A stretch of DNA of 64,000 nt, from the NCBI GenBank assembly GCA_050253335.1, contig JBFWJG010000003.1:1-64000 (forward strand). The letters run 5' to 3'. The DNA comes from Deferribacterales bacterium (GTDB lineage Bacteria > Chrysiogenota > Deferribacteres > Deferribacterales > Geovibrionaceae). Below the pieces are notes generated by a model. That model ran no database searches. It had not been told where the DNA came from and was given only the letters and a program-made list of their open reading frames with translations. Every line of letters begins with the position of its first letter. Within the stretch, counting starts at the first letter, position 1. Made by a program: the position numbers and the translations under genes. Positions 2,763 through 28,086 of this stretch are shown here, piece by piece.

Positions 2763-3467
2763 ATGAAAGATTTGCTTGAAAGAGTTCTGGCAGATAAGCC
2801 TGAGTGTATGATGACAGATATCCAAGATACAACAATTTATCAAGGCACTCTTTATCGCTTCATAGTCGAAGAATATTGGCAGAATAACGCCTCAGTAAAT
2901 ATCTTTCAGGTTTGCGGCTCATGCCATCCTGACTATATAAACAGCCCTTGGATATATATCCTCACGGACGGAAAGAGGATAAAACGCAATCTTGAGATGT
3001 TCAGAGAAAACCCCGGTTACTACACTGAATCGGCTACTAAAGACCCCACTATGTTTTATACAAAGCATGATAATGTGCTTTATCTGTCCGGTGACGGAAA
3101 CCACAGAACCGCCATAGCAAAGGCATATTTCCATTATATCGGAGCTGAAGAACTCAAAGGCGTTAAGCTCACTGACAATGTTATTGACCATGCTCTTGCC
3201 GAAGCTTTCAGCAAACTTCAGACAATGTGCGCTCAAATTAAGAAGCCCACACTGATTCCTGAACTGATCAGCCAGCTTACAGCAAGAGATGACGGTGCAG
3301 GCTGGCAGAAAAACAGGTTCAAACTGACTGTGAAGCTGATGAATGTTTCTTCCGGAAACATTATCTTTCTTAATACTGATGAGATTTATGAGCTTATCGA
3401 AGAAATGAAATCCAATCCATTGTTCCGTATGTTCCGTTCAAACAGATACGCTAAATTTCTAAGGTGA
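2763..3467 (+). CDS. Hypothetical protein with ParB/Srx-like DGxHR motif; paralogue of 15948-16670
   Basis: 'LSGDGNHRTAIAKA'; AAGGAGG RBS; C-terminus nearly identical to that of 15948-16670. Confidence 0.6.
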   Translation: MKDLLERVLADKPECMMTDIQDTTIYQGTLYRFIVEEYWQNNASVNIFQVCGSCHPDYINSPWIYILTDGKRIKRNLEMFRENPGYYTESATKDPTMFYTKHDNVLYLSGDGNHRTAIAKAYFHYIGAEELKGVKLTDNVIDHALAEAFSKLQTMCAQIKKPTLIPELISQLTARDDGAGWQKNRFKLTVKLMNVSSGNIIFLNTDEIYELIEEMKSNPLFRMFRSNRYAKFLR

Positions 3468-3470
3468 TTT

Positions 3471-4244
3471 ATGAAAAAACTCCTGCTTATTTTTACTCTT
3501 ATGTCAGCGGCAGCATATGCCACTGAACCTCTTCAGGTAAATAAAAAGAAAGAATTCTGGACAGACCGGGAAAGGGGCTGGTACTGGTACGAAGAGGAAC
3601 CTATAAAGGAAGAACCCTCAAATGACAATAAAACCGCTCAGAAGCCGTTTTCTAAGCCGTCAGTTGATTGGGATGCTGTCTGGACGATGCACCCGCAGGA
3701 ATTCAGCAAACTCATTGATGATGTGAAGCATTATGCAATAATGTACCCAACGCAAGAGAATGTGAAGGATTACCTTCAGATGCAGTCCATTGCTTTGGAT
3801 CGCTCCAGGGCGTTCATGGATGCGGCCACCATGGTGAGCCAGACAACGCCGGAACTCTCCAGAGAAAGCACGTTCCCTGTGTCCACCGTTGGCCAGAACG
3901 AGCTGCACAGACAACGCCAGGCTAACATAGACTCTATCCTCCAACAGAACAGGGAACGTTATGCCCTGCTGTACTTCTATTCACCGACCTGCGGCGCATG
4001 TGCAAAACAGCAGCCGATATTACAGTATTTTGAGCAGGAAACAGGCTGGTACATAAAGCCGGTGGACGTGAATGAAGACCAGATAGCCGTCATGCGCTTC
4101 GGCATCCAGTCCACACCGTCACTGGTGATGATAGAAAGGAACTCTCCGGAATGGATCCTCATCGGTTCCGCCATCCTCTCTCTGCCTGAGATTAAGGAGA
4201 GGATCGTCCGCAGCATTGACAAAGGGCAGATGGTGGGGAGGTAG
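3471..4244 (+). CDS. traF: Conjugal transfer protein TraF (thioredoxin-like)
   Basis: Signal peptide, 'RGWYWYEE', 'FYSPTCGAC', 'TPSL'. Confidence 0.85.
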   Translation: MKKLLLIFTLMSAAAYATEPLQVNKKKEFWTDRERGWYWYEEEPIKEEPSNDNKTAQKPFSKPSVDWDAVWTMHPQEFSKLIDDVKHYAIMYPTQENVKDYLQMQSIALDRSRAFMDAATMVSQTTPELSRESTFPVSTVGQNELHRQRQANIDSILQQNRERYALLYFYSPTCGACAKQQPILQYFEQETGWYIKPVDVNEDQIAVMRFGIQSTPSLVMIERNSPEWILIGSAILSLPEIKERIVRSIDKGQMVGR

Positions 4245-4246
4245 GG

Positions 4247-4375
4247 ATGTTTAACAGGAAGGAATTGAAAAGATTTCGAGAGGAAAATGCCGCTTTAAGA
4301 CAGCAGATTAAGCAACTTACTGAAGAGTCTGAACTCATAAAAATGATTTCTTTATTGTCTACGTTGACTTTTTGA
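4247..4375 (+). pseudogene. 42-aa coiled-coil ORF, probably truncated by insertion of the AT-rich methylase cassette
   Basis: ATG 2 nt after the traF stop; MFNRKELKRFREENAALRQQIKQLTEESEL..., ends where composition turns AT-rich. Confidence 0.35.
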
Positions 4376-4596: not shown

Positions 4597-5829
4597 ATGG
4601 GTTATAATTTCATTGATCTATTTGCAGGTTGTGGAGGGTTGTCGCTTGGACTCAAAACAACAGGCTGGAAAGGTCTATTTGCAATTGAAAAAAACCAAGA
4701 TGCCTTTGAAACCCTTAAGCATAATTTTTCAAATAAATATCCATTTGAATGGCCAGATTGGTTGCCATTTGAAAATATAGATATCAACTATCTGTTAGTA
4801 CATTACAGAGATAGATTGTATCAGCTTAAAGGGAAAGTTGATATGATTGCGGGAGGACCTCCGTGCCAAGGGTTTTCTTATGCAGGAAAAAGAGATGCGG
4901 CAGACCCTAGAAATAGCTTATGTACATCATATTTAAATATAGTTGAGTTAGTTGAACCTAAAATAATACTTTTTGAAAATGTTAAAGGATTTACTTCTGG
5001 TTTTAAAGTGCAAAATAGCAACGGTATCACAAAAAAAACGAAACCCGTATCTGAACAAATAAGCGATGCATTTACTAAACTAGGATATAAGGTTTTTTCA
5101 AATGTTATATCTGCTTCTGATATTGGAGTACCACAATCAAGACATCGTTTTGTTATGATTGCCATAAAGCACGATATAATAAACAACAGTGTAACTAATG
5201 AAATTTTCTTTGATAAATACATGAATTTTGTCAGCAAATTTAAAGAAGAAAAAAAGTTACCAAAAGACAAAGTCACTGTGAGAATGGCTATTGATGACTT
5301 ATCTATAACTAATAATAAAATTATACCTTCCAGAGAATCCCATGGTTTTAATGAAATTGAATATCTAAACACTAGTATTGACAACAGTTACTTAAAGATC
5401 ATGAGAAATAATTGTAATAAACCAAGCAACTTAAGACTAGCAAATCATAAAGAAAGTACAATAAAACGTATGAGATATATTCTATCTCATTGTAGCAGAG
5501 GCAAATCTATAGATAATGCCACAAAAGAATATCTAAATATTAAGAAACAAACAACTATTCCATTAGATCCTGATGGAATAGCGCCAACAATAACTACTCA
5601 TCCTGATGACATTATTCATTACAGTGAACCCAGAATTTTAACCGTTAGAGAGTTAGCTAGACTTCAGTCTTTTCCTGATTGGTTCGAGTTTAAAGGGAAG
5701 TATACAACAGGTGGACTGAGGCGAAGAAATGAATGCCCAAAATATACTCAAGTAGGTAATGCAGTCCCCCCTCTTTTAGCTGAATCTTTGGGTAAATTTA
5801 TAATGAAATTACTAAATGGTGAACTATGA
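4597..5829 (+). CDS. DNA (cytosine-5)-methyltransferase
   Basis: Motif I 'DLFAGCGG', IV 'GGPPCQGFS', VI 'ENV', VIII 'QSRHR', IX 'RELARLQSF', X 'VGNAVPP'; ATG start chosen (TTG at 4579 possible). Confidence 0.95.
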   Translation: MGYNFIDLFAGCGGLSLGLKTTGWKGLFAIEKNQDAFETLKHNFSNKYPFEWPDWLPFENIDINYLLVHYRDRLYQLKGKVDMIAGGPPCQGFSYAGKRDAADPRNSLCTSYLNIVELVEPKIILFENVKGFTSGFKVQNSNGITKKTKPVSEQISDAFTKLGYKVFSNVISASDIGVPQSRHRFVMIAIKHDIINNSVTNEIFFDKYMNFVSKFKEEKKLPKDKVTVRMAIDDLSITNNKIIPSRESHGFNEIEYLNTSIDNSYLKIMRNNCNKPSNLRLANHKESTIKRMRYILSHCSRGKSIDNATKEYLNIKKQTTIPLDPDGIAPTITTHPDDIIHYSEPRILTVRELARLQSFPDWFEFKGKYTTGGLRRRNECPKYTQVGNAVPPLLAESLGKFIMKLLNGEL

Positions 5830-8258
5830 GCAATCAGTTATACTTTAAAGTCAACACTGAGTTAAAAAGTATCATTGGAAAGGATCTTATAAATGATGAT
5901 AATGTTGCTATAATTGAACTTATTAAAAACTCATATGATGCGCAAGCTAGTCTGACCACAGTTGAATTCAACTCAATGGACGATAAATTAATAATTGCGG
6001 ATAACGGCATAGGAATGAGTTTAGAAGATATAAGTGAGAAATGGCTGAATATTGCACATTCGAGCAAGAAAGTCGTTAAAGATAAGGCGATTGCTGGTAA
6101 CAAGGGAGTTGGACGATTTTCTTGTGACAGGTTGGGAACTATTCTCGAAATGTACACGTTTACAAAGAATTCCCTCCCCATAAAACTCACTGTTAATTGG
6201 GAAGATTTTGAGATATACGATCCTCAAAAAGAAATAACTCATATCTCAATGAAATACGAAGAAGTAAGTGCAAATGAAGTTTTTAATCAAACAAGTTTAA
6301 AGTTGACAACACAAGGGACTGTTCTTGTAATAAAAAATCTTAGAAAAAAATGGGGTAATGAATCTTTAATAAAACTAAGAAGAGAGTTAGGAAAATTTAT
6401 TAGTCCCTATGCAAATACTGATTTTTTGATTGAGATGGTATGTATTGGAGAAGAATTTTCCTCTAATCTCAATGGAGCAATAAGAAATACAATCATTTCC
6501 GATACAATAAGTAAAACTTCATATATAAAATCAAAAATTGAAAATAATATTATAACTTCTTCCTTGTTTTACGAAGGGCAGCAACTTTTTACCATATATG
6601 AAAATAATCCCTATCAAAATTTAGATAACATAGAAATGGAAATTGTTTACCTAGGTACTTATGAAAAAGCATTTTTTACTCGCAGAATGGGATACAGAAA
6701 TTCTGAATATGGATCAATTTTTTTATTTGTAAATGGTTTTAGAATATCTCCGTTAGGTGATCCTGATAATGACTGGCTTGGTGTTGATAGACGTCACGCA
6801 CAAGGTACAAGACGCTATCTCGGTAATAGAGATATACTGGGAAGAATTGATATAAAAGATAATAATAACCTATGGAAAGTTACTTCTAGCCGAGAAGGTA
6901 TTGTTGAAAATGATTCATATAATGAACTTACTTTTACAAATATTGGTGAAACAAGAGGAAGACTTGGGTATTTCCAGAGAATATTTAGAAAACTGGAGAG
7001 GTATGTTATTGAGGGATTAGACTGGGATGGTTATGAAGATGAAAATGCCTTCAATATATTATTAAAAACAGGTAACGATAATAATCTTGAGAAACGAACT
7101 CCTGATAACAATCGTCGCAAACAAATAGTTCAATCATTACTATCAATAATAACAGCAGGTGGTACAAAAAGTTCTGATATTTTATTTCTAGAGTTTAATG
7201 ATGGTTTTCTGACAGTGCTCAAAGAACAACACGATAATATTATAAATACTTTTTATAATGAAATGGAAGGGATTATAGAAAAGAGTGATAAGCCAGAGCA
7301 ATTTCATAGAAATCTTGAGCATTTTAAGCAGTTGGTTGAAAAAGCAAAAGAAAAAGATCGGAAAAATCAATTACTTCTACAGCAAAAATATGAATTAGAA
7401 AAGAAGCTCGAACAAGAAAAAGAAAAATCAAGATTACTGGAAATAGAGCGGATTAAAGCTGAAGAGGAAAAAACCAAAGCAAATGAAGCGCGTATTATTG
7501 CCGATAAAGCGCGTATTGAAGCAGAAAAAGATAAAAAGACGGCGGAGATTAAAGTCCAGCAAAAAGCACAGGAGAACTTATTTTTGAAAGCAACTTTATC
7601 AACAGACATGGAAGATGTTGTTAAAATTGCTCATATATTCATTATTTGGTCGAATACAATCAAAAAAACCATTAGCCGCTTAATCAGTGAGTTGTCTATA
7701 TCTAATCCAGAGATACTTGAGAAACATACACGAGTGTATTATGCGCTCGAACTGATAGATAAGATTAATGCCAACTCAAAGATTATCTCAAAACATAATG
7801 TTAAGATCAACTCCCAGAATACAACAACTGATTTAATTGGTTTTATTAAAAACTACTTGAATGATGCGTTAATTAGCATCGAAGATCAAAGGTTAGAGTA
7901 TAACATAAAGATATCAGATGATATTGAATTTATAACAACATTTAAAACGCTCGAGTTTTCAATAGTATTAGATAATTTACTTAATAATGCGAAAAAAGCT
8001 GGAGCAACAATGATTACTATAGATATACAGGAACTTACAAAGGATTATATTATTTTAGCATTTTCCGATAATGGAAAAGGCTTAAGCGAAACAATCAATG
8101 ACCCTAATGATATTTTTAATTTTGGATTTACTACAACAGACGGCTCTGGAGTAGGCTTATATCATTGTAAATCCATTATAGACGAATTGAAGGGTGAGAT
8201 CTCTGTAAGCAAATACAATGGGTTTACTTTATACATTAAAATTCCGAAACTGGTGTAA
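5826..8258 (+). CDS. MORC/GHKL ATPase fused through a coiled coil to a C-terminal histidine kinase module
   Basis: N-terminal GHKL boxes 'ELIKNSYDA', 'DNGIGM', 'GNKGVGRFS'; E/K-rich coiled coil; second set 'DNLLNNA', 'DNGKG', 'IFNFGFTT', 'GSGVGL'; candidate phospho-His in 'KIAHIF'. Confidence 0.85.
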   Translation: MSNQLYFKVNTELKSIIGKDLINDDNVAIIELIKNSYDAQASLTTVEFNSMDDKLIIADNGIGMSLEDISEKWLNIAHSSKKVVKDKAIAGNKGVGRFSCDRLGTILEMYTFTKNSLPIKLTVNWEDFEIYDPQKEITHISMKYEEVSANEVFNQTSLKLTTQGTVLVIKNLRKKWGNESLIKLRRELGKFISPYANTDFLIEMVCIGEEFSSNLNGAIRNTIISDTISKTSYIKSKIENNIITSSLFYEGQQLFTIYENNPYQNLDNIEMEIVYLGTYEKAFFTRRMGYRNSEYGSIFLFVNGFRISPLGDPDNDWLGVDRRHAQGTRRYLGNRDILGRIDIKDNNNLWKVTSSREGIVENDSYNELTFTNIGETRGRLGYFQRIFRKLERYVIEGLDWDGYEDENAFNILLKTGNDNNLEKRTPDNNRRKQIVQSLLSIITAGGTKSSDILFLEFNDGFLTVLKEQHDNIINTFYNEMEGIIEKSDKPEQFHRNLEHFKQLVEKAKEKDRKNQLLLQQKYELEKKLEQEKEKSRLLEIERIKAEEEKTKANEARIIADKARIEAEKDKKTAEIKVQQKAQENLFLKATLSTDMEDVVKIAHIFIIWSNTIKKTISRLISELSISNPEILEKHTRVYYALELIDKINANSKIISKHNVKINSQNTTTDLIGFIKNYLNDALISIEDQRLEYNIKISDDIEFITTFKTLEFSIVLDNLLNNAKKAGATMITIDIQELTKDYIILAFSDNGKGLSETINDPNDIFNFGFTTTDGSGVGLYHCKSIIDELKGEISVSKYNGFTLYIKIPKLV

Positions 8259-8259
8259 T

Positions 8260-9168
8260 ATGAGATTAAACTACAAAGTTCTATGGCTTGATGACCAAAT
8301 TCGCAGTGTCAATGATGAAATAGAAGAAGTCAAAACCTACATTAACAGCAAAGGTTTTTATCCTGATTTTACTACAGAGTCAACATTTACAAGAATGTAC
8401 ATCGAAAAACAGCTTTCTCAGCCATGGAATATAATTGTTTTTGATTACGATACAGGGAATGCTGAATTTAGTGGTCTAACGGCCATTGATACAGTCAGAC
8501 GGTGTGAATATTATACTGAGATCGTTATATACACAACAACACAATCAAATCTTGATAAAATAAGAACAGAATTTAAAGAGGGTGTATTTTCATCTCTTCG
8601 AGATAACGTTGTTGAAAAGGTAAAAACCGTTATTGACTTGACATTAAAAAAGATAATGGATGTAAATGTTATGAGGGGGCTTGTCCTTGCTTCTGTTGCA
8701 GAAAATGATTTTCTAATGAATAAAGTTTTAGAACATATATTAGAAACAGAGCCCAGTTTGATTCTGAAACAAGAAACATTGAGAAAAGAGATTGATAATA
8801 AAATTGAAGATACAAATAAAAGAAGAGCACAGAAGCTTGACGAAAATAATGACACATTAATTAGTTACTATATAAATTCCAACATACTCACCTCTGAAAC
8901 TCGAAAAGATTTTTTTATGAGACTTGGAAAGAATCATTCTGATTGTAAGAAATATTACGAATCAATTAAGCCGTATACAGATATACTTAAAAAACGTAAT
9001 TTACTCGCTCATGGACATACTTGCATTGATTCTGGTAGAGAGTGTATTCGTTCAATACATGAAAATGAAACAGGAATATTTACCCTTGAAGATGCACTTG
9101 ATTTACGGAAAAAACTTATAAGTTATAAGGATATTTTTGAGGATATTGCAAAGATATTTGAAAGATAA
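8260..9168 (+). CDS. Response-regulator receiver domain fused to a putative HEPN-type RNase domain
   Basis: 'KVLWLDD', 'IIVFDYD', 'IVIYT' receiver strands; helical C-terminus with 'KKRNLLAHG' (RxxxxH) at nt 8995-9012; ATG 1 nt after the kinase stop. Confidence 0.65.
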   Translation: MRLNYKVLWLDDQIRSVNDEIEEVKTYINSKGFYPDFTTESTFTRMYIEKQLSQPWNIIVFDYDTGNAEFSGLTAIDTVRRCEYYTEIVIYTTTQSNLDKIRTEFKEGVFSSLRDNVVEKVKTVIDLTLKKIMDVNVMRGLVLASVAENDFLMNKVLEHILETEPSLILKQETLRKEIDNKIEDTNKRRAQKLDENNDTLISYYINSNILTSETRKDFFMRLGKNHSDCKKYYESIKPYTDILKKRNLLAHGHTCIDSGRECIRSIHENETGIFTLEDALDLRKKLISYKDIFEDIAKIFER

Positions 9169-9281: not shown

Positions 9282-9662
9282 ATGTATCACAACAAGCATA
9301 CCATAATCGGAAACATTACCAGAAAACCGGAACTGGAATACCCCAAGAGTAAGAAAGGCAGTGAATTTGCCCTCTGCAAATTCGGCGTTGCCGCCAACAA
9401 ACCTAAGTCGGAAAATCCTTTCTTTATCGAAGTTGTTGTTTTCGGCGCACAGGCCGAAGCTTGCGCTGAATATCTCGACAAGGGCGCACCTGTCTTCATC
9501 GAAGGTGAACCGCAGTATGATTCATGGGAAGACAAGGAAGGGAACTTTTCCTCAAAAATCTACCTGAAAGCCAACGATGTTCAGTTTCTGCCCAGAAAAG
9601 AGAAATCAAAAAACGAACCCGACAATGATACTGACAAAAAAGGCAACAGACGGAGACGCTGA
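9282..9662 (+). CDS. ssb: Single-stranded DNA-binding protein
   Basis: 'NKHTIIGNITRKPEL', 'FGAQAEACAEYLDKGAPVFIEG', 'ANDVQFL'. Confidence 0.9.
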   Translation: MYHNKHTIIGNITRKPELEYPKSKKGSEFALCKFGVAANKPKSENPFFIEVVVFGAQAEACAEYLDKGAPVFIEGEPQYDSWEDKEGNFSSKIYLKANDVQFLPRKEKSKNEPDNDTDKKGNRRRR

Positions 9663-15947: not shown

Positions 15948-16670
15948 ATGTATAATCTGCTTAAAAAACTTCAGGAAGAACAACCGGAGTTCATAACGGC
16001 AAAGATTGCTGATTGCAGTACCGTTTATAACAGTCTGTGCCGTTATGCACGGGAAATATCATATAAATCAGAAGCAGCAGTAAATATCTTTGAGGTCAAT
16101 GCAACAGATGCCCCGCAGTTTGCTGACAAATCATGGCTGGAGCTTCTGACATCATCAAATGACAGGACAAGAAATGCGGTGCTCGAAGCCATGAATAATC
16201 CGGACTACTACTTCACATCAGTAAAGAAGGGCATTGCATATAAAAGAGTCGGTCAACATCTTATCGTGTCTGACGGTTGCCATTACAAAACAGCAGTGGC
16301 CAAGGCTGTACTTTTCAGAGCCGGAAAGTACAACTTCAAAGGTGTTGACCTTACTGACTATCTTATTGATTTTTCAATGGCAGAATCTCACAGATATTTA
16401 CGGAAACTCCTGAATACAAAAGGTCTGTATTTTCCGGACGGTAAGTCAAAAATCCTGCCCCGCCTATTCTTACGGAGAACCGACATCAAAGAGGGAGTCG
16501 GCTGGAGAACAGAAAGATACACACCAGTTATTCAGATAAATAATCTGAAAACCGGCGGGAAGATGGATCTCATCACTGCAAAAGATGTGCTAGATCTCAT
16601 ATCTGAACTGCACTCAAGCCCGATTCTCCGGAGATTCCGTTCAAACAGCTACGCAAAGTTTCTGCGCTGA
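15948..16670 (+). CDS. Hypothetical protein, degenerate ParB-like paralogue of 2763-3467
   Basis: 'VSDGCHYKTAVAKA'; C-terminus 'PILRRFRSNSYAKFLR'; GGAGG RBS. Confidence 0.6.
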   Translation: MYNLLKKLQEEQPEFITAKIADCSTVYNSLCRYAREISYKSEAAVNIFEVNATDAPQFADKSWLELLTSSNDRTRNAVLEAMNNPDYYFTSVKKGIAYKRVGQHLIVSDGCHYKTAVAKAVLFRAGKYNFKGVDLTDYLIDFSMAESHRYLRKLLNTKGLYFPDGKSKILPRLFLRRTDIKEGVGWRTERYTPVIQINNLKTGGKMDLITAKDVLDLISELHSSPILRRFRSNSYAKFLR

Positions 16671-22038: not shown

Positions 22039-22066
22039 AGCCGGAGCTAAAAACTCCGGCTTTTTT
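22039..22066 (+). terminator. Intrinsic terminator (copy 2)
   Basis: Identical to 21755-21782. Confidence 0.8.
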
Positions 22067-25000
22067 ATCTGGTCTTCAGTTCCCGACACAGAACCTTTGC
22101 AAATTCCAACCCGCTCCAATCAGAACGGTTTCCTATGACATAAACACGTAACTTTGCCCTTGTGACAGCCACATTCAAAAGATTAGGCTTGCTGCATACC
22201 CAGTTCCGGCTGCCGTAGCCTTTTGAACCAGAAGCAGAGCCGAGGACGATAAATACAATGTCCGCCTCCTTACCCTGAAAAGTGTGGACAGTACCGCACT
22301 GAATTTTATCTGATAATCCAAGTTCCCTAACTGCCTTTCTTGCGGTAGTTGCAACTTTCCTGAAAGGAGCAATGACATAGACACTTGCCTCCCTGTCTTT
22401 TCCAACCACAGGGAAATCCCCTTTCAGTCTTGTCAGGGCTTCAGCTAAGAAGTCAATTTCTTCTTGAACAACCTGTTCCTGTGAAGAACCTTTTATATCA
22501 AACCAACAACTATCACCAAGCACACACGAAACTGATTCAGGGTTATTATTTGCCTGAACCATCTGGTTGCCATAAGCTATTTCATTGGATATTGAAAACA
22601 TCGGCTCAATGCACCGTCTATGCGCTCTTAAAGGCAATCCAACCCAAGTATCACCCACATAAGAGCCATACTTCATGGTACGGTCGGCAACTGTCTGAAC
22701 GGATGCAGACAGAGGGCAGAAATATTCTTCAACCTTGTAGTGCTGTTTCATTTTTTCTACAATGATATTCGGAACTGTCATAACAGGTTCTATCTGCATG
22801 GGATCTCCTATGATAACAGCCCTTTTGGAACGCCAGATAGCCCCCGCTGCCATTTGAGGAGTAGACTGTCCGGCTTCATCCACCAGAAGCCAGCCCAGAG
22901 ACTCCTTTCCAAGCCCTTTAAAAAGCCGAGAGAGTGATGCAAAAGTTGTTGAAACGACAGGAGTAATGAAAAAGAGCATGTTCCATATTGAGAGTAATTC
23001 CTCTGCGGAGATAACTCCACCCTTGTTATTCAACAACCCCTTTACAGCCTTCATATTTGCGTCCCACTTACCAGCCGTAGCGCACATCGTCCACTCATGA
23101 AGCTTGAGAGCTGCCAAGAATAATTCTGCGCGTAACACTTCTACTTCTTTTGTCGTCCATAAGCTTTTGAGATGTATTTCCTGCTTCTCTTGTACAAAGA
23201 ATTTTTTATCAGGAAAATTTATATCTTTAGTTTGTAGAGGGTTAAATAAAGCCTGTAATTTTTCAAGTTCTAAGAGAATAGCCTTTTTCTGCTTGTTCAG
23301 TTCATTTATTACAGATTTACTGAGTTGAGATAAAGAATCAATTTTTTTATTAATATCCTTAAGTTCCTTGTCAACAAGAATAATCTTTTCATTTACAACG
23401 ATATAACCCTGTTCAAGCTTCTCGTACCCTTCCAGCCAAAGCTTATATGAGAGAAACTTAAACCAAACAGCTAAAATCCACGGTTTACGACGCTCATGCT
23501 GTCCGAGTCTAATCTTTTCATTCTCTTGCTGCCGTTCCAGAGATTTTTTTTCTGACCCTAATGCTTCTTTTTGAGAGACGAGTTCACTTATCTGAAGACG
23601 AAGCTGCTCACTCTTGTCATTTTCCTCTGCAAGCTTACTTTCAACATCAGTTAGTGCTTCTTCTAGTTCATATATTTCTTCAATAAACGGTTGCAGACTG
23701 ATAATATGTTCTTTATAAGCATTAAATATTTTAAGCTTTTTATTAAAATTATCCTTCGCTACTTTCCAGTTCTTTGAAGCCTCTTTATAATTACTTTTCC
23801 AATGTTCCAAATAAAGCTTCAGCGTGCATGGCATATCAGGGACAAAAACCTTGTTCACATGCTGAGACTGAACAATGCCACTACTGAATTTTATCTCAAT
23901 TTCACTTATTGACGGATTCTGGAAGTAATCAGATACCGATATATACTCAGCACTTTCAGGACTTTTTTTAACCTTTTTAAATATCCAAATATCATTTGCT
24001 TTGCTCTCAGGTTCACCAAAGAGGTTTTCAATATCAGACTGCTTGGTTTCATTTTTTATTACGATATTCTTTAAGAGTTCGGTATCCCGCCCCTCAAAAG
24101 GATCATAAACCTTACTGATAAATTCATGTCTATTAACAGCATTGCCCAAAGGCGCAGCCACTAAGCCCCACGCACTCTCACCAAATTTATTTAGAGCAAC
24201 TTCCTTAATATAACTTGTGTCAGGGAAGGCTTTTGAGTCAATTTTTGTCGGTATTTCCGCTGATATATTCTTGACAGCATTATTATTACTGCTGGCAACC
24301 ACTATCTGCGTATTCTGCATTATGTTACAGTCTAGGCTGTAAACTTTTATATTTTCTGATGAAAATTCGCCCTTAAACAAGTCTTTCGGGTAACGCAGAT
24401 CAGATATTTTCTCGGCTCTTTTGATTATCACATCGGCGACTACGTCCTGAAGCAGTGTTGTCTTACCTGTTCCGGGCGGACCATTGACGGAGATAAGTTT
24501 TGAATGTGGCTCTGAAGAGTCCAGTATTTTGAAGACCGCTGCTTGTTGAGCAAGCATAAGGGAATGTTCGGGATTGGTAGCCCATCTGCCCATCGGCAGC
24601 AGCTCTGGTCTTAGGCACTGTTTTAAATATGTTTTGTTGGCGAGAATATCTCTTCTTTCTTCTGAATTTGTAGTAGATAGGTATGCCTCAAGAGCTTGCC
24701 CGAATATCTCCCCAGAGTTATTTACAAGCGTGTCGAGATCTGAAAGGAAAAAGGAGTTAATCAGGTCAGAATCCGTACTTATTTCAGAATTGTTTCTTAA
24801 ACCAAAACATCTTACAAAAACCTCAATATTTTCTTCTTCCAGAGGGTAGCGGATAATTTTGGTAATCAGATCGATTTCATCATTGATAAAATCCCAATCA
24901 ACTTGCTTTTTGTCATCGTTTACAGAGAATTTACTTGATATTCTGCCGTCAAAGGCAAGGGAGTAATTTTGAAGCTCGTCATTAATACTTTCTAAACTTT

Positions 25001-25394
25001 CGGGAATGCTTAGTTTTTCAATACCTATAATAAAGCTTGCCAGAGTATAGCTTTTTTCAACAGGTTTTCCTTTTCCATCAACGCAGAAAACGGCAAAACA
25101 ACCGCCACTTTCATCAATTCTTTCTTTTTCGTCTATACTCATTTCAGGAGAATCAGGAATAAGGCTTAAAATATGCCTGATAATATGTTGCTTGGAAGTA
25201 AATCCTAAATAAACCTGAAAATAAACCTTTTCGCTAATGGACTTCTGCCACGGGAAGGGCTTTCCTAAGTTTTTGTTATATGAACTATATGCAAAAGTTT
25301 TTTCATCGTCATTTTTTTGTAACGAAGGAACATCAAATATATCAACGGCTCGCCAAAATTTCAGAATGTTTGTTACTCGTTGTCTGTCAGTCAT
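22065..25394 (-). CDS. Superfamily 1 UPF1/DNA2-like helicase with central coiled coil
   Basis: 'GPPGTGKTT', 'DEAGQ', 'IGDPMQIEP', 'HRRC', 'GTVHTFQGKEAD', 'LNVAVTRAK'. Confidence 0.9.
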   Translation of the reverse strand: MTDRQRVTNILKFWRAVDIFDVPSLQKNDDEKTFAYSSYNKNLGKPFPWQKSISEKVYFQVYLGFTSKQHIIRHILSLIPDSPEMSIDEKERIDESGGCFAVFCVDGKGKPVEKSYTLASFIIGIEKLSIPESLESINDELQNYSLAFDGRISSKFSVNDDKKQVDWDFINDEIDLITKIIRYPLEEENIEVFVRCFGLRNNSEISTDSDLINSFFLSDLDTLVNNSGEIFGQALEAYLSTTNSEERRDILANKTYLKQCLRPELLPMGRWATNPEHSLMLAQQAAVFKILDSSEPHSKLISVNGPPGTGKTTLLQDVVADVIIKRAEKISDLRYPKDLFKGEFSSENIKVYSLDCNIMQNTQIVVASSNNNAVKNISAEIPTKIDSKAFPDTSYIKEVALNKFGESAWGLVAAPLGNAVNRHEFISKVYDPFEGRDTELLKNIVIKNETKQSDIENLFGEPESKANDIWIFKKVKKSPESAEYISVSDYFQNPSISEIEIKFSSGIVQSQHVNKVFVPDMPCTLKLYLEHWKSNYKEASKNWKVAKDNFNKKLKIFNAYKEHIISLQPFIEEIYELEEALTDVESKLAEENDKSEQLRLQISELVSQKEALGSEKKSLERQQENEKIRLGQHERRKPWILAVWFKFLSYKLWLEGYEKLEQGYIVVNEKIILVDKELKDINKKIDSLSQLSKSVINELNKQKKAILLELEKLQALFNPLQTKDINFPDKKFFVQEKQEIHLKSLWTTKEVEVLRAELFLAALKLHEWTMCATAGKWDANMKAVKGLLNNKGGVISAEELLSIWNMLFFITPVVSTTFASLSRLFKGLGKESLGWLLVDEAGQSTPQMAAGAIWRSKRAVIIGDPMQIEPVMTVPNIIVEKMKQHYKVEEYFCPLSASVQTVADRTMKYGSYVGDTWVGLPLRAHRRCIEPMFSISNEIAYGNQMVQANNNPESVSCVLGDSCWFDIKGSSQEQVVQEEIDFLAEALTRLKGDFPVVGKDREASVYVIAPFRKVATTARKAVRELGLSDKIQCGTVHTFQGKEADIVFIVLGSASGSKGYGSRNWVCSKPNLLNVAVTRAKLRVYVIGNRSDWSGLEFAKVLCRELKTR

Positions 25395-25506
25395 CTTTAC
25401 CCTTCAGACGTATTTTAAGCTAACGTGCCTAAAGGGTAACATAAATTTTCAAGATGTGTCAGCAATTTTAAATTTTGAGAAAACAGTATAAATGTTTTAA
25501 TATCAA

Positions 25507-26649
25507 TTAATAATCTATTCGATCAATCAACTCCTTGCCTCTCCATTCTGTATTTGGTTCACCAAGATATATAGAGCCATAATCTTCATATGCTTCGATG
25601 TTATAACCAATATCATCAATCAATAAAGCACTGTATTCTTTAATCGTACTTTCAAAACTATTTAACAAATCCTTATCTACCAAACACCCAAGTTCAGATT
25701 TGCTTATTAAGTTTTCGATGCGCTCTATTGCACTCGGGTGTGTTTTAACAGATAAAGGTGATGCTGGTGAAATGTAATCACTTGCAACCTCATATAAAGC
25801 AAGCCCTATAAACCAAAGTATTGCAGAATTTAAAATTCTGGAACGCTCAACCATATTATATTTTGGAATTAAAATTGAAAAGATATCAGCCTCTAATTCT
25901 TGCTTTTGAGAATTATTGAAAACCTTGACGAATCCATAATCATTATTAGTTTGACCCACTGCTTGTAGTATAGGCTTTTCAATCATATCACCTACCGACA
26001 AATGCCCCAAACAACAGTGTGCAAACTCATGTCCAACAATAAATTTCAATTGATCCGAAATAGGTTTATGAATATCAAAAACAATATTTTCAGGAACAAT
26101 CCCTCTTGGATCAAGAAGAAAATCCATACTTTCAGTTTGCAGCATTGTTCTTACAGCTATCCTTAAAGAATTGAATTTAACACTTATAGGAATTTGTCCC
26201 CCAAAGTCAAGTATGGCTAAATGAAAAAACTTAAGAAAAAAGTTTAAGGATTTGCTTATTGAACATATAATTCCAATCCCAGAGTCATAAATAATACCAT
26301 TCGGTTCACTTGTGAAAATATCCCCACAATAAATTGCTTGGCATCTCAACCTGTACTCTTCAGGAAGCTTTCTTAGGACTTCAGCATAATGCTCTCTACG
26401 AAAATATGACTCAGGACTCCAATTTAAATTACCTTGTTTTTCGTGAAAATATTTTAAATGATAAAATACCCTAGAGTATCGTGGATGGTCAGTTAGAGTA
26501 TCGGCTCTGAGTTTCAGTAAATAGTCCTCTCCATTTCGTATATTGTAAATTCTTTCAATTTCTTGTTTTGAATATAAACCCATATACCATTCAGGTCCAA
26601 ATGGATAGTCACTTAAAAAACTTTTTCTAGAGCGAGGGGCTATGCTCAT
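25507..26649 (-). CDS. Soluble zinc metallopeptidase (Lit/U49- or M48-like)
   Basis: 'GHEFAHCCLGH', 'QELEAD', 'THPSAIERI'; GGAG RBS before ATG 26649; AT-rich. Confidence 0.7.
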   Translation of the reverse strand: MSIAPRSRKSFLSDYPFGPEWYMGLYSKQEIERIYNIRNGEDYLLKLRADTLTDHPRYSRVFYHLKYFHEKQGNLNWSPESYFRREHYAEVLRKLPEEYRLRCQAIYCGDIFTSEPNGIIYDSGIGIICSISKSLNFFLKFFHLAILDFGGQIPISVKFNSLRIAVRTMLQTESMDFLLDPRGIVPENIVFDIHKPISDQLKFIVGHEFAHCCLGHLSVGDMIEKPILQAVGQTNNDYGFVKVFNNSQKQELEADIFSILIPKYNMVERSRILNSAILWFIGLALYEVASDYISPASPLSVKTHPSAIERIENLISKSELGCLVDKDLLNSFESTIKEYSALLIDDIGYNIEAYEDYGSIYLGEPNTEWRGKELIDRIDY

Positions 26650-26687
26650 TGATACTTCTCCGCATGATCTGAGCTTAATTAGATGCT

Positions 26688-26996
26688 TCAAGCACTCTGC
26701 CTTTTTATAAAAAGAGTATATCCAAGGGCAGCAAGAATTTCCTTCAAAGTCTTCAGCTTGGGATTGCCCTGACCGGAGAGAGTCTTATAAAGCGATTCTC
26801 TGGATAGACCTGTTACCTCAGATAATTTGGCAAAGCCTATACCTGCTTGAACAACCTGCCTGATTGCCAACAAAAACTCCAGTTCATCACCGTTCTCGGC
26901 ATAATTCTCCGCTGCAATCTCAAGATACTCAATGCGACTTTCAGGTGTAGAAAGCCTTTCCTGAATAAGATTATCAAGCGTTCTATAAATTCTCAT
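26688..26996 (-). CDS. HTH antitoxin (addiction module antidote)
   Basis: 'FAKLSEVTGLSRESLYKTLSGQGNPKLKTLKEILAALG'; overlaps the upstream toxin gene. Confidence 0.88.
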   Translation of the reverse strand: MRIYRTLDNLIQERLSTPESRIEYLEIAAENYAENGDELEFLLAIRQVVQAGIGFAKLSEVTGLSRESLYKTLSGQGNPKLKTLKEILAALGYTLFIKRQSA

Positions 26997-27303
26997 TGTA
27001 GTCACTCCACAACTGTTTTGCCGACTCAATATCTTTGCTCTGAGTCTTCTTGTTTCCACCACATAAAAGAATAACTATCTTGTTATTTTTTATGCCGTAA
27101 TAAACCCGATACCCGCCTCCATAGGTAAAGCGTAGCTCATACACGGAGGAACCGACAGATTTATGATCACCTAAATTCCCAGACCTAATCCGGTCTAATC
27201 GCTGAAGGACTCTCACTTGATCCTTAGAATCCAGATCCCCCAACCAAATATTAAAAGGTTCTTTCCCATCTTCTGTCCGGTAGATTATAATTTCATATGA
27301 CAT
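26983..27303 (-). CDS. RelE/HigB-family toxin (addiction module killer)
   Basis: 'GNLGDHKSVG', 'ELRFTYGGGYRVYY', 'LLCGGNKKTQSKDI'. Confidence 0.9.
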   Translation of the reverse strand: MSYEIIIYRTEDGKEPFNIWLGDLDSKDQVRVLQRLDRIRSGNLGDHKSVGSSVYELRFTYGGGYRVYYGIKNNKIVILLCGGNKKTQSKDIESAKQLWSDYNENL

Positions 27304-27560
27304 AAATAAAAGTAGCCCAAAAGATACAAATATTCAAGGTTTAATTTAAACGATTCACCAAAACCTATTTTTTCCTTGATGTCAATTTGCTTACAGCAGC
27401 ATTATATAGCAATAAAAAAAGGCGCTGAACAAAAGATATATATCTTTTATATCAACGCCTTTCAGAAATCGGGTCAAAAGAATCAACTACATCTTCCCTC
27501 ACTGACGGATAAATGGCGGATAAATGTCTGAATAGATCGTTCATTGGTCAGTGATGAAAT

Positions 27561-27668
27561 AATGGTGTAAGCAAGACAACTGCCACAGAAGAGCTTGGCA
27601 ATCTATCAGACAAAGATTTACTGTTCCATTCAGGAACTGGGCGAGGCAGCAATTATACTTTAAAATAA
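27561..27668 (+). pseudogene. Remnant of a C-terminal winged-HTH domain
   Basis: Start-less frame NGVSKTTATEELGNLSDKDLLFHSGTGRGSNYTLK*, flanked by 22-bp direct repeats at 27514-27535 and 27748-27769. Confidence 0.5.
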
Positions 27669-27807
27669 TCGGCCGCTAATTGGCCGAATTGGCCACTAAT
27701 TGACCGCTAATTGGCTGATACATTAAGTCAACAGCCTATTATCTCATTGGCGGATAAATGTCTGAATAGGCAGAGCTAAGGACTGTAGATATTTGTTTAA
27801 AGATAAC

Positions 27808-28086
27808 TTATATTTTTTGCCCAAACAGGTTAGAGTGTTTACCGATACGTATTAAACGGACTTCTTCAGAAGTGATTTCATAGATTAGCACAACATCGGG
27901 AAATAGATGACAATCTCTACAGCCAAGAAATTCACCGATGAGCGGATGATCCTTATATTTGACAGGCAGAGAAGTCTCCTCCATGAGCAACCCTATAACT
28001 TCTCTAAGCTCAGACTCTACTGCTTTATTGTGTTTAAAAGCCTTATAGTCTTTCTTAAATTTACTCGTTATAACAAGCTCTTTCAA
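27808..28086 (-). CDS. yafQ: YafQ-family mRNA interferase toxin
   Basis: 'FKKDYK', 'KYKDHPLIG', 'RDCHLFPDVVLIY', 'RIGKHSNLF'. Confidence 0.9.
   Translation of the reverse strand: MKELVITSKFKKDYKAFKHNKAVESELREVIGLLMEETSLPVKYKDHPLIGEFLGCRDCHLFPDVVLIYEITSEEVRLIRIGKHSNLFGQKI

Follow-up and report, generated by a model that had tools for sequence, protein, structure and literature searches.

A conserved three-gene cassette joining a C5 methylase and a MORC-type histidine kinase to a receiver fused to a probable HEPN RNase

Here we describe a cassette of three genes in a 64,000-nucleotide (nt) stretch of a Deferribacterales bacterium (contig JBFWJG010000003.1, positions 1 to 64,000), hereafter the window. 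Its first gene codes for a C5 cytosine DNA methylase, its second for a histidine kinase that carries a MORC-type ATPase, and its third for a receiver that continues into a probable HEPN RNase. The unit is conserved, mobile and widespread. Its distinguishing feature within the class of methylase-linked MORC-kinase/receiver systems is the fusion of the receiver to the probable HEPN RNase. Judged from sequence, the most likely role is phage defence by a phosphorylation-switched RNA-cutting enzyme. The components, all on the + strand, are as follows (aa, amino acids).

4597..5829, +: gene 1, C5 cytosine DNA methyltransferase, 410 aa
5826..8258, +: gene 2, paraMORC-type GHKL ATPase, coiled coil and histidine kinase, 810 aa
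5901..6242, +: N-terminal MORC/MutL-type GHKL domain of gene 2, residues 26-139 (PF13589, 77.9 bits)
7632..7634, +: His603 of gene 2, predicted autophosphorylation site in an atypical H-box, invariant in 134 of 134
7962..8249, +: C-terminal kinase-type ATP-binding domain of gene 2, residues 713-808 (PF02518, 64.9 bits)
8260..9168, +: gene 3, receiver and probable HEPN, 302 aa
8260..8655, +: receiver domain of gene 3, residues 1-132, with the acidic pair D11/D12, D62 (codon 8443-8445), T92 and Arg114
8656..9168, +: probable HEPN domain of gene 3, residues 133-302, with R139-G140, R246-N247-x-x-A-H251 (codons 8995-9012) and R283

Genes 1 and 2 overlap by 4 nt (ATGA), and genes 2 and 3 are separated by 1 nt (TAA-T-ATG). 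An earlier reading of the same DNA (the original prediction) had proposed a candidate new defence system made of three tightly coupled genes with no restriction nuclease. The coordinates and junctions agree with it. The C5 methylase, the two GHKL modules of gene 2, the candidate phospho-His in KIAH, the receiver motifs WLDD and FDYD, and the RxxxxH motif in KKRNLLAHG all lie where it had placed them.

Conservation and distribution of the cassette

We examined 172 loci, namely the window, genome G053, 10 cassette loci in viral contigs, 80 of 100 genome matches and 80 of 249 metagenome matches. A single motif served to find them, and Bacteroidota are strongly represented; 76 of them have full context, with at least 7 kb upstream and at least 3 kb downstream. 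The kinase is encoded directly upstream of the receiver gene in all 164 loci with an upstream open reading frame (ORF). A methylase homologue lies within four ORFs in 74 of the 76 full-context loci, the other two being fragmented, and the predicted grouping of the three genes holds across homologous loci. The G+C content (GC) of the cassette is below that of its flanks in all 76.

Because the motif-found loci are rich in Bacteroidota, three profiles were also run over 401 genomes of the phylum of genome G068, the only one of them chosen for the trait, with two to five candidates scored per genome. The family methylase was found in 12 of these genomes, the family kinase in the same 12 (13 loci), the receiver in 11 and the full receiver-HEPN gene in 10. 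Every one of the 12 methylases lies beside a family kinase. Nine of the 13 kinase loci carry the family methylase and the full receiver-HEPN gene, and one pairs receiver-HEPN with another C5 methylase. The receiver is cut at 137 aa in one locus (G497), and two have a different output (G461 and G413). At these two (L284:6692-8069 in G461 and L285:6980-8351 in G413) the family methylase and kinase are found with the output swapped for a receiver-like 240-aa protein and an unknown 220-aa protein that has no Pfam match.

Full-length matches occur in 2 of 68 genomes of the window's own phylum. The family comprises 726 clusters at 50% identity and spans at least 14 phylum-level groups, archaea included. 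A quick tree of 80 kinases mixes phyla, with 17 changes against a minimum of 13 and a shuffled mean of 26.3. This fits transfer without proving it.

The C-terminus of gene 3 is a probable HEPN domain

The C-terminus of gene 3 is, on sequence evidence, probably HEPN, an identity that is not proven. R139, R246 and H251 are each present in all 142 receiver proteins and N247 in 141. In a set of 164 the R of RxxxxH is found in 163 of 164 and the H in 164 of 164. The median identity of the C-terminal domain is just 0.28, yet the catalytic-type residues are invariant. The predicted conservation extends to D62 of the receiver (142 of 142) and to His603 of the kinase, and the invariance of D62, R139, R246, H251 and H603 argues that these motifs are not chance.

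Gene 3 by itself gave only weak matches in Pfam, both to HEPN families; the families nearest to its C-terminus are PF18735 and PF18737. When 108 C-terminal domains were searched, 125 Pfam families were matched at E 0.1, and the top three by number of members (13, 7 and 5) are HEPN. The best match of a member to a HEPN family has an E of 1.1e-7. In profile alignments the C-terminal domain runs colinear with 11 RiboL-PSP HEPN domains over 112-142 columns, with the RxxxxH helix and both terminal helices paired. The alignment scores exceed those of 25 column shuffles (local 27.6 versus at most 17.8; global 26.5 versus 8.3), and the reversed profile is also beaten.

The RxxxxH motif lies on helix 239-251 of an alpha-helical domain in the monomer model. 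A two-copy model of gene 3 scored 0.72, against 0.00 for the best of three controls; 20 of 30 solved homodimers pass the mark for this score, as does 1 of 23 monomers. Three runs gave 0.72, 0.39 and 0.73; they share at least 74% of contacts and have a predicted local distance difference test (pLDDT) of at least 77. Residues 153-162 are predicted to pack on 200-225 of the partner as a helix swap, and the interface includes R139, R246 and R283, with R246 from both copies and H251 from one. The dimer of the original prediction is obtained in these models, with the RxxxxH helix at its interface.

One stand-alone protein of 186 aa (L216:1345-1905, in G068) has RG...E and RNxxAH and matches the C-terminal profile weakly (E 9.4e-4). 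It is a possible solo relative of the domain.

The receiver and the kinase

The predicted model of the receiver has a flavodoxin-like fold with the acidic pair, the Asp and the Ser/Thr. PF00072 matches 116 of the 142 receiver proteins, and the gene 3 homologues are named response regulators in databases. The position after strand 5 (114) is Arg in 127 of 142 and Lys in 9; in the model Arg114 appears to be the equivalent of the canonical receiver Lys. No helix-turn-helix (HTH) family was matched by gene 3, and none is among the 25 most frequent Pfam families of its homologues. A receiver without an HTH is what had been predicted, and the Arg in place of Lys had been missed.

PF13589 and PF02518 occur together in 42 of 42 kinase family members. 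The N-terminal ATPase motifs of gene 2 (ExxxN, DxGxG and GxxGxG) are intact (E31, N35, D59-G61-G63 and G94-G96-R97) and each is found in all 134 complete kinases, as are D716, N721, G775 and G777 of the kinase domain, which has the N, G1, F and G2 boxes. The conserved region continues from the GHKL domain to about residue 400 and, by analogy, may be S5-like. The family is soluble, with a 19-residue hydrophobic stretch above 1.8 in 0 of 65 non-redundant members. His603 is invariant, as the original prediction would lead one to expect; it had overlooked that the residue after it departs from the usual acidic type (Q in 47, D in 33, I in 29 and H in 18 of 134). Neither gene 2 nor its family gave a HisKA or HEF_HK match in the Pfam search.

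The methylase family

Gene 1 matches PF00145 with 218.6 bits (cut-off 22) and has the motifs FxGxG, catalytic PPC90Q, E127-N-V and QxRxR (R182/R184). C90, E127-N-V and R182/R184 are invariant in 115 of 115 methylases. The methylases found two genes upstream of the receiver gene score, all but two, 318-428 bits against the window protein. Nine copies that have been moved or inverted reach 311-375, and other methylases in the same loci 55-191. By sequence score the kinase-linked methylases are one tight family, even when moved or inverted.

A weak lead to the methylase target comes from depleted patterns in 65 non-redundant cassettes. CGATCG is the most depleted of 225 (5 observed versus 22.4 expected; flanks also low, 0.51) and CGRYCG the third most depleted (24 versus 54.6 expected; flanks 0.75).

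In five loci (L034, L037, L040, L041 and L120, four of them in viral contigs) the family methylase lies downstream of the receiver gene on the opposite strand. In phage AcaML1 (L229, JX507079.1, 4968-9663) a family methylase with 42% identity is followed by McrB- and McrC-like genes with no kinase. Others without the kinase occur beside a DUF87 gene and other unknown genes on plasmids. Since the family also occurs without the kinase, it appears to be a module shared between defence-type cassettes.

Downstream genes

A gene directly 3' of the receiver gene is present in 143 loci. Its product is a methylase (21 loci), HNH (15), a NinI-like metallophosphoesterase (14), a PNKP-type HAD phosphatase (5), Vsr (5), an HhH-GPD glycosylase (3) or an McrB-like protein (3). 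The remaining downstream genes are unrelated or unknown, and some could be unrecognised nucleases. McrB-like genes lie within 14 of the 76 full-context loci. The loci share no nuclease family, HNH being the commonest, and most of them have no conserved fourth gene. The block in the window has no restriction endonuclease beside the methylase, and the genome of the window has no match to the Vsr or HNH tested. The absence of a constant restriction nuclease, as originally claimed, stands.

A phosphatase follows the trio in 19 of the 143 loci, with two unrelated folds in the same slot. These are the NinI-like metallophosphoesterases (L047, L069, L070, L093, L094, L098, L102, L115, L117, L142, L153, L154, L177 and L190) and the PNKP-type HAD phosphatases (L031, L032, L033, L038 and L108). 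Their catalytic motifs are intact, and 16 of the 19 genes overlap the receiver gene by 1-16 nt. HEPN RNases leave 2',3'-cyclic phosphate ends, and PNKP-type phosphatases heal such ends; the phosphatase slot is therefore a lead for reversibility.

One trio (L050:3290-12622) is embedded in a type III restriction-modification (R-M) operon, with an N6/N4 methylase gene on one side and a type III Res gene on the other. More distant double-GHKL kinases (L288-L293) pair with other methylases (C5, Eco57I-like and N6), and their outputs include short receivers with a 200-aa partner, Vsr and a metallo-beta-lactamase-fold protein.

Relationship to known systems

The comparisons that follow draw on the parts of the cited papers available to us. 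Two-component-like pairs of HEF_HK (PF19191) and Response_reg_2 (PF19192) proteins have been described beside C5 methylases (Bellieny-Rabelo, Pretorius and Moleleki 2021, PMC8011034). Like the cassette, they combine a soluble HATPase_c_3, His helix and HATPase_c protein with an adjacent receiver and an upstream C5 methylase. Sporadic HNH and Vsr neighbours are found in both, and both are known from computation only. The kinases of the cassette differ in lacking PF19191 (0 of 42 at E 0.01, and none in the window protein at E 0.1, assuming that this model, like PF19192, is in the Pfam copy searched). Their receivers match PF19192 weakly in 5 of 142 (best E 0.0022), the window protein not at all. 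The HEF_HK-pair receiver used as query is 600 aa long with no known output domain and keeps the Lys, whereas the receiver protein here has about 300 aa, includes an RxxxxH domain and carries Arg instead. The HEF_HK His is followed by Glu/Asp, whereas H603 mostly is not followed by an acidic residue. The text available to us proposes R-M regulation for these pairs, not an RNase, and names no output.

Ambrosia (AbrR-AbrA-AbrB-AbrC-AbrD) of Pseudomonas aeruginosa likewise joins a methylase, a HATPase/histidine kinase and a receiver in one operon (van den Berg et al., bioRxiv 10.1101/2025.09.30.679545). It is anti-phage, and its receiver Asp is essential, D60A abolishing defence. Ambrosia has an N6 adenine methylase, a receiver with a winged HTH, an HNH effector and an XRE regulator, and is non-toxic to the host during defence. 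The cassette is set apart by domain make-up, with a C5 methylase, receiver-HEPN and usually no HNH or XRE. The word HEPN is absent from the main text of the preprint.

The paraMORC ATPases of R-M operons (Iyer, Abhiman and Aravind 2008, PMC2292703) are also mobile and place an N-terminal GHKL ATPase beside cytosine methylases, Vsr and HNH. They act with SF2 helicases and DNases, unlike the cassette, and the terms receiver and two-component are absent from the main text. R-M-associated HEPN RNases such as PrrC, and the RiboL-PSP/MAE_28990 families, likewise link an RxxxxH domain to DNA-modification genes, and a role as suicide back-up has been suggested for them (Anantharaman et al. 2013, PMC3710099). 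In these systems, control is by an ATPase or R-M subunits and not by a phospho-receiver. The one passage there on a receiver concerns a membrane domain, with no receiver-HEPN fusion. DS-11 (DefensePredictor, PMC13092281) resembles gene 3 in fusing a regulatory domain, CBS, to a dimeric HEPN, both being needed for defence. It is a single gene with ligand-binding CBS, in contrast to the phospho-receiver here. The legend of Fig. 6F of that paper lists HATPase and REC among unvalidated predictions.

In the parts available, PMC7159879, PMC12839542, PMC11090510 and PMC6563490 describe no receiver-HEPN fusion. Literature searches found no paper on a receiver-fused HEPN output, which the supplements of the HEPN, HEF_HK, Ambrosia and DefensePredictor papers could list. 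The suggestion that the architecture is new has to be narrowed accordingly: a methylase with a MORC-type kinase and a receiver was published in 2021 and 2025, and it is the receiver-HEPN output that was not found described.

Proposed mechanism and alternative explanations

An invariant His and an invariant Asp in an always-adjacent pair point to a working phosphorelay, and the likewise invariant RxxxxH motif, in a protein that lacks a DNA-binding domain, speaks for an enzymatic output. Vsr and glycosylases repair deaminated 5-methylcytosine, and the constant methylase with an occasional Vsr or glycosylase argues for real methylation of host DNA. We propose, with about even confidence, that the cassette is a mobile, self-contained anti-phage (or anti-plasmid) module in which a phosphorelay-gated RNase provides abortive or dormancy defence. 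To judge from its intact motifs, the methylase would mark host DNA. The MORC-type end of gene 2 would monitor the mark. It may bind target sites that lack methylation on DNA entering the cell, or it may respond when the methylase is interfered with; this is the least certain step. The ATP cycle of this domain would be relayed through the coiled coil to the kinase. As the invariant residues and fixed adjacency suggest, the kinase would autophosphorylate His603 and pass the phosphate to Asp62 of gene 3. Phosphorylation may then rearrange the modelled dimer and bring its two RxxxxH motifs together into an active RNase site. Cleavage of RNA would follow, translation would stop and the infected cell would become dormant or die. 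The gene structure, the joint inheritance of the trio, the conserved residues and the mobility are observed; the trigger, the direction of control and the activity we infer throughout. Tentatively, we also put forward a fuller version in which the MORC-type ATPase reads methylation and the His-to-Asp relay switches the HEPN RNase with no transcription step and no DNase. A coupled phosphatase would optionally reset the relay or heal RNA ends, leading to reversible dormancy.

Several observations weigh against this proposal. Gene 3 of the window is below the cut-offs of the HEPN Pfam families (20 versus 26.8 and 18.9 versus 28.4 bits), and hhalign probabilities to HEPN are only 6-40%. The HEPN identity claimed originally has sequence and profile evidence behind it, but fold searches with the monomer model gave no match to a solved HEPN; a helix-swapped dimer could explain this failure. 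One dimer run was low (0.39), and the output of the dimer model does not show the two RxxxxH motifs facing each other. PADLOC recognises the methylase and, in gene 2, the ATPase part only, and none of its models matches gene 3. The atypical H-box together with the atypical strand-5 residue of the receiver suggests that phosphotransfer may be unusual. Because the Ambrosia methylase did not protect DNA (bioRxiv 10.1101/2025.09.30.679545), self-marking is not to be assumed here. Finally, 2 of the 13 kinase loci use another output, so an RNase is not the sole possible effector.

Control could also run in the opposite direction, which we consider unlikely. The kinase would keep Asp62 phosphorylated and the RNase silent, and infection would stop the kinase so that the unphosphorylated dimer cuts RNA. 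This would be an antitoxin acting by phosphorylation, comparable to HEPN silencing by AMPylation, with methylated DNA or the intact methylase being sensed. The conservation data fit it equally, and in none of 164 loci does the receiver-HEPN gene occur without the kinase, which is what toxicity of the gene by itself would lead one to expect. For HEPN domains beside R-M systems it has been suggested that they are kept inactive as long as the R-M system has not been disabled (PMC3710099, in the part available). However, D60A in Ambrosia abolishes defence and is not reported, in the text available, as toxic, which favours activation in that relative. The methylase and kinase persist with a truncated receiver (G497) or another output (G461 and G413), and this fits either logic.

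An addiction module of a conjugative element or prophage, with phage defence secondary, we regard as improbable. Loss of the element would dilute methylation, the stable kinase would sense unmethylated host sites and the RNase would kill the segregant. The position inside a tra region here and in viral contigs elsewhere, and the GC below that of the flanks, are in its favour. Yet many copies are surrounded by housekeeping genes and had no mobility gene next to them in the flanks scanned, a tblastn search of 72,556 plasmids gave no match to a family member, and three large genes would be costly for simple addiction. There is also only a small chance, in our view, that the trio is a regulatory two-component system whose C-terminus is a HEPN-like dimerisation or RNA-binding module controlling the methylase or a nuclease elsewhere, as proposed for HEF_HK/Response_reg_2 and Ambrosia. 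The downstream HNH genes, the nearby McrB-like genes, the database names of the members and the lack of a structural HEPN match would fit such a role. It is harder to reconcile with the lack of a matched HTH, with R246, N247 and H251 being conserved far above background, which suggests catalysis, and with most loci having no conserved fourth gene to regulate. That the window copy is what remains of a restriction system of four genes after loss of the nuclease is very improbable. HNH, Vsr or McrBC-like genes do stand beside a minority of relatives and the tested Vsr and HNH are missing from the genome of the window, but the commonest nuclease family fills just 15 of 143 downstream slots, and all three genes of the window are intact and carry every invariant residue.

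If the phosphorylation-switched RNase is real, two-component phosphorylation would be added to the known controls of HEPN RNases. The cassette would then be the simplest handle on what bacterial MORC-kinase sensors detect, as it has three genes, can be read out by enzyme activity and can be switched at single residues. The family is large and broad, yet its gene 3 goes unrecognised by PADLOC.

Genomic setting in the window

The cassette is flanked by two genes that lie outside it.

3471..4244, +: traF, left flank (PF13728, 210.8 bits)
9282..9662, +: ssb, right flank (PF00436, 71.4 bits)

The trio has a GC of 0.316 (0.29-0.34 in 500-nt windows), the genome as a whole 0.489, and the AT-rich insertion between traF and ssb that had been noted earlier is borne out. 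It sits in an F-type conjugation region, traW-traU-traF ... traN-trbC-traH-traG. In the related tra region of genome G035, traH follows traF directly, and there is no match to the trio in the 17 kb covered.

The interval that separates traF from the cassette holds a 42-aa ORF (4247-4375) bordering the AT-rich block. A segment of 174 nt surrounding this ORF shares 82% identity with a stretch of G029, where the 20 kb covered gave no tra match. The tra region of the window also holds paralogous genes of 234-240 aa at 2763-3467 and 15948-16670, with 31% identity and no assigned function, and a homologue of these sits between traH and traG in G035. After traG, a second AT-rich stretch (22065-28000, GC 0.34-0.45) carries an SF1 helicase (1109 aa) and an M48 peptidase-like gene and is possibly further defence cargo.

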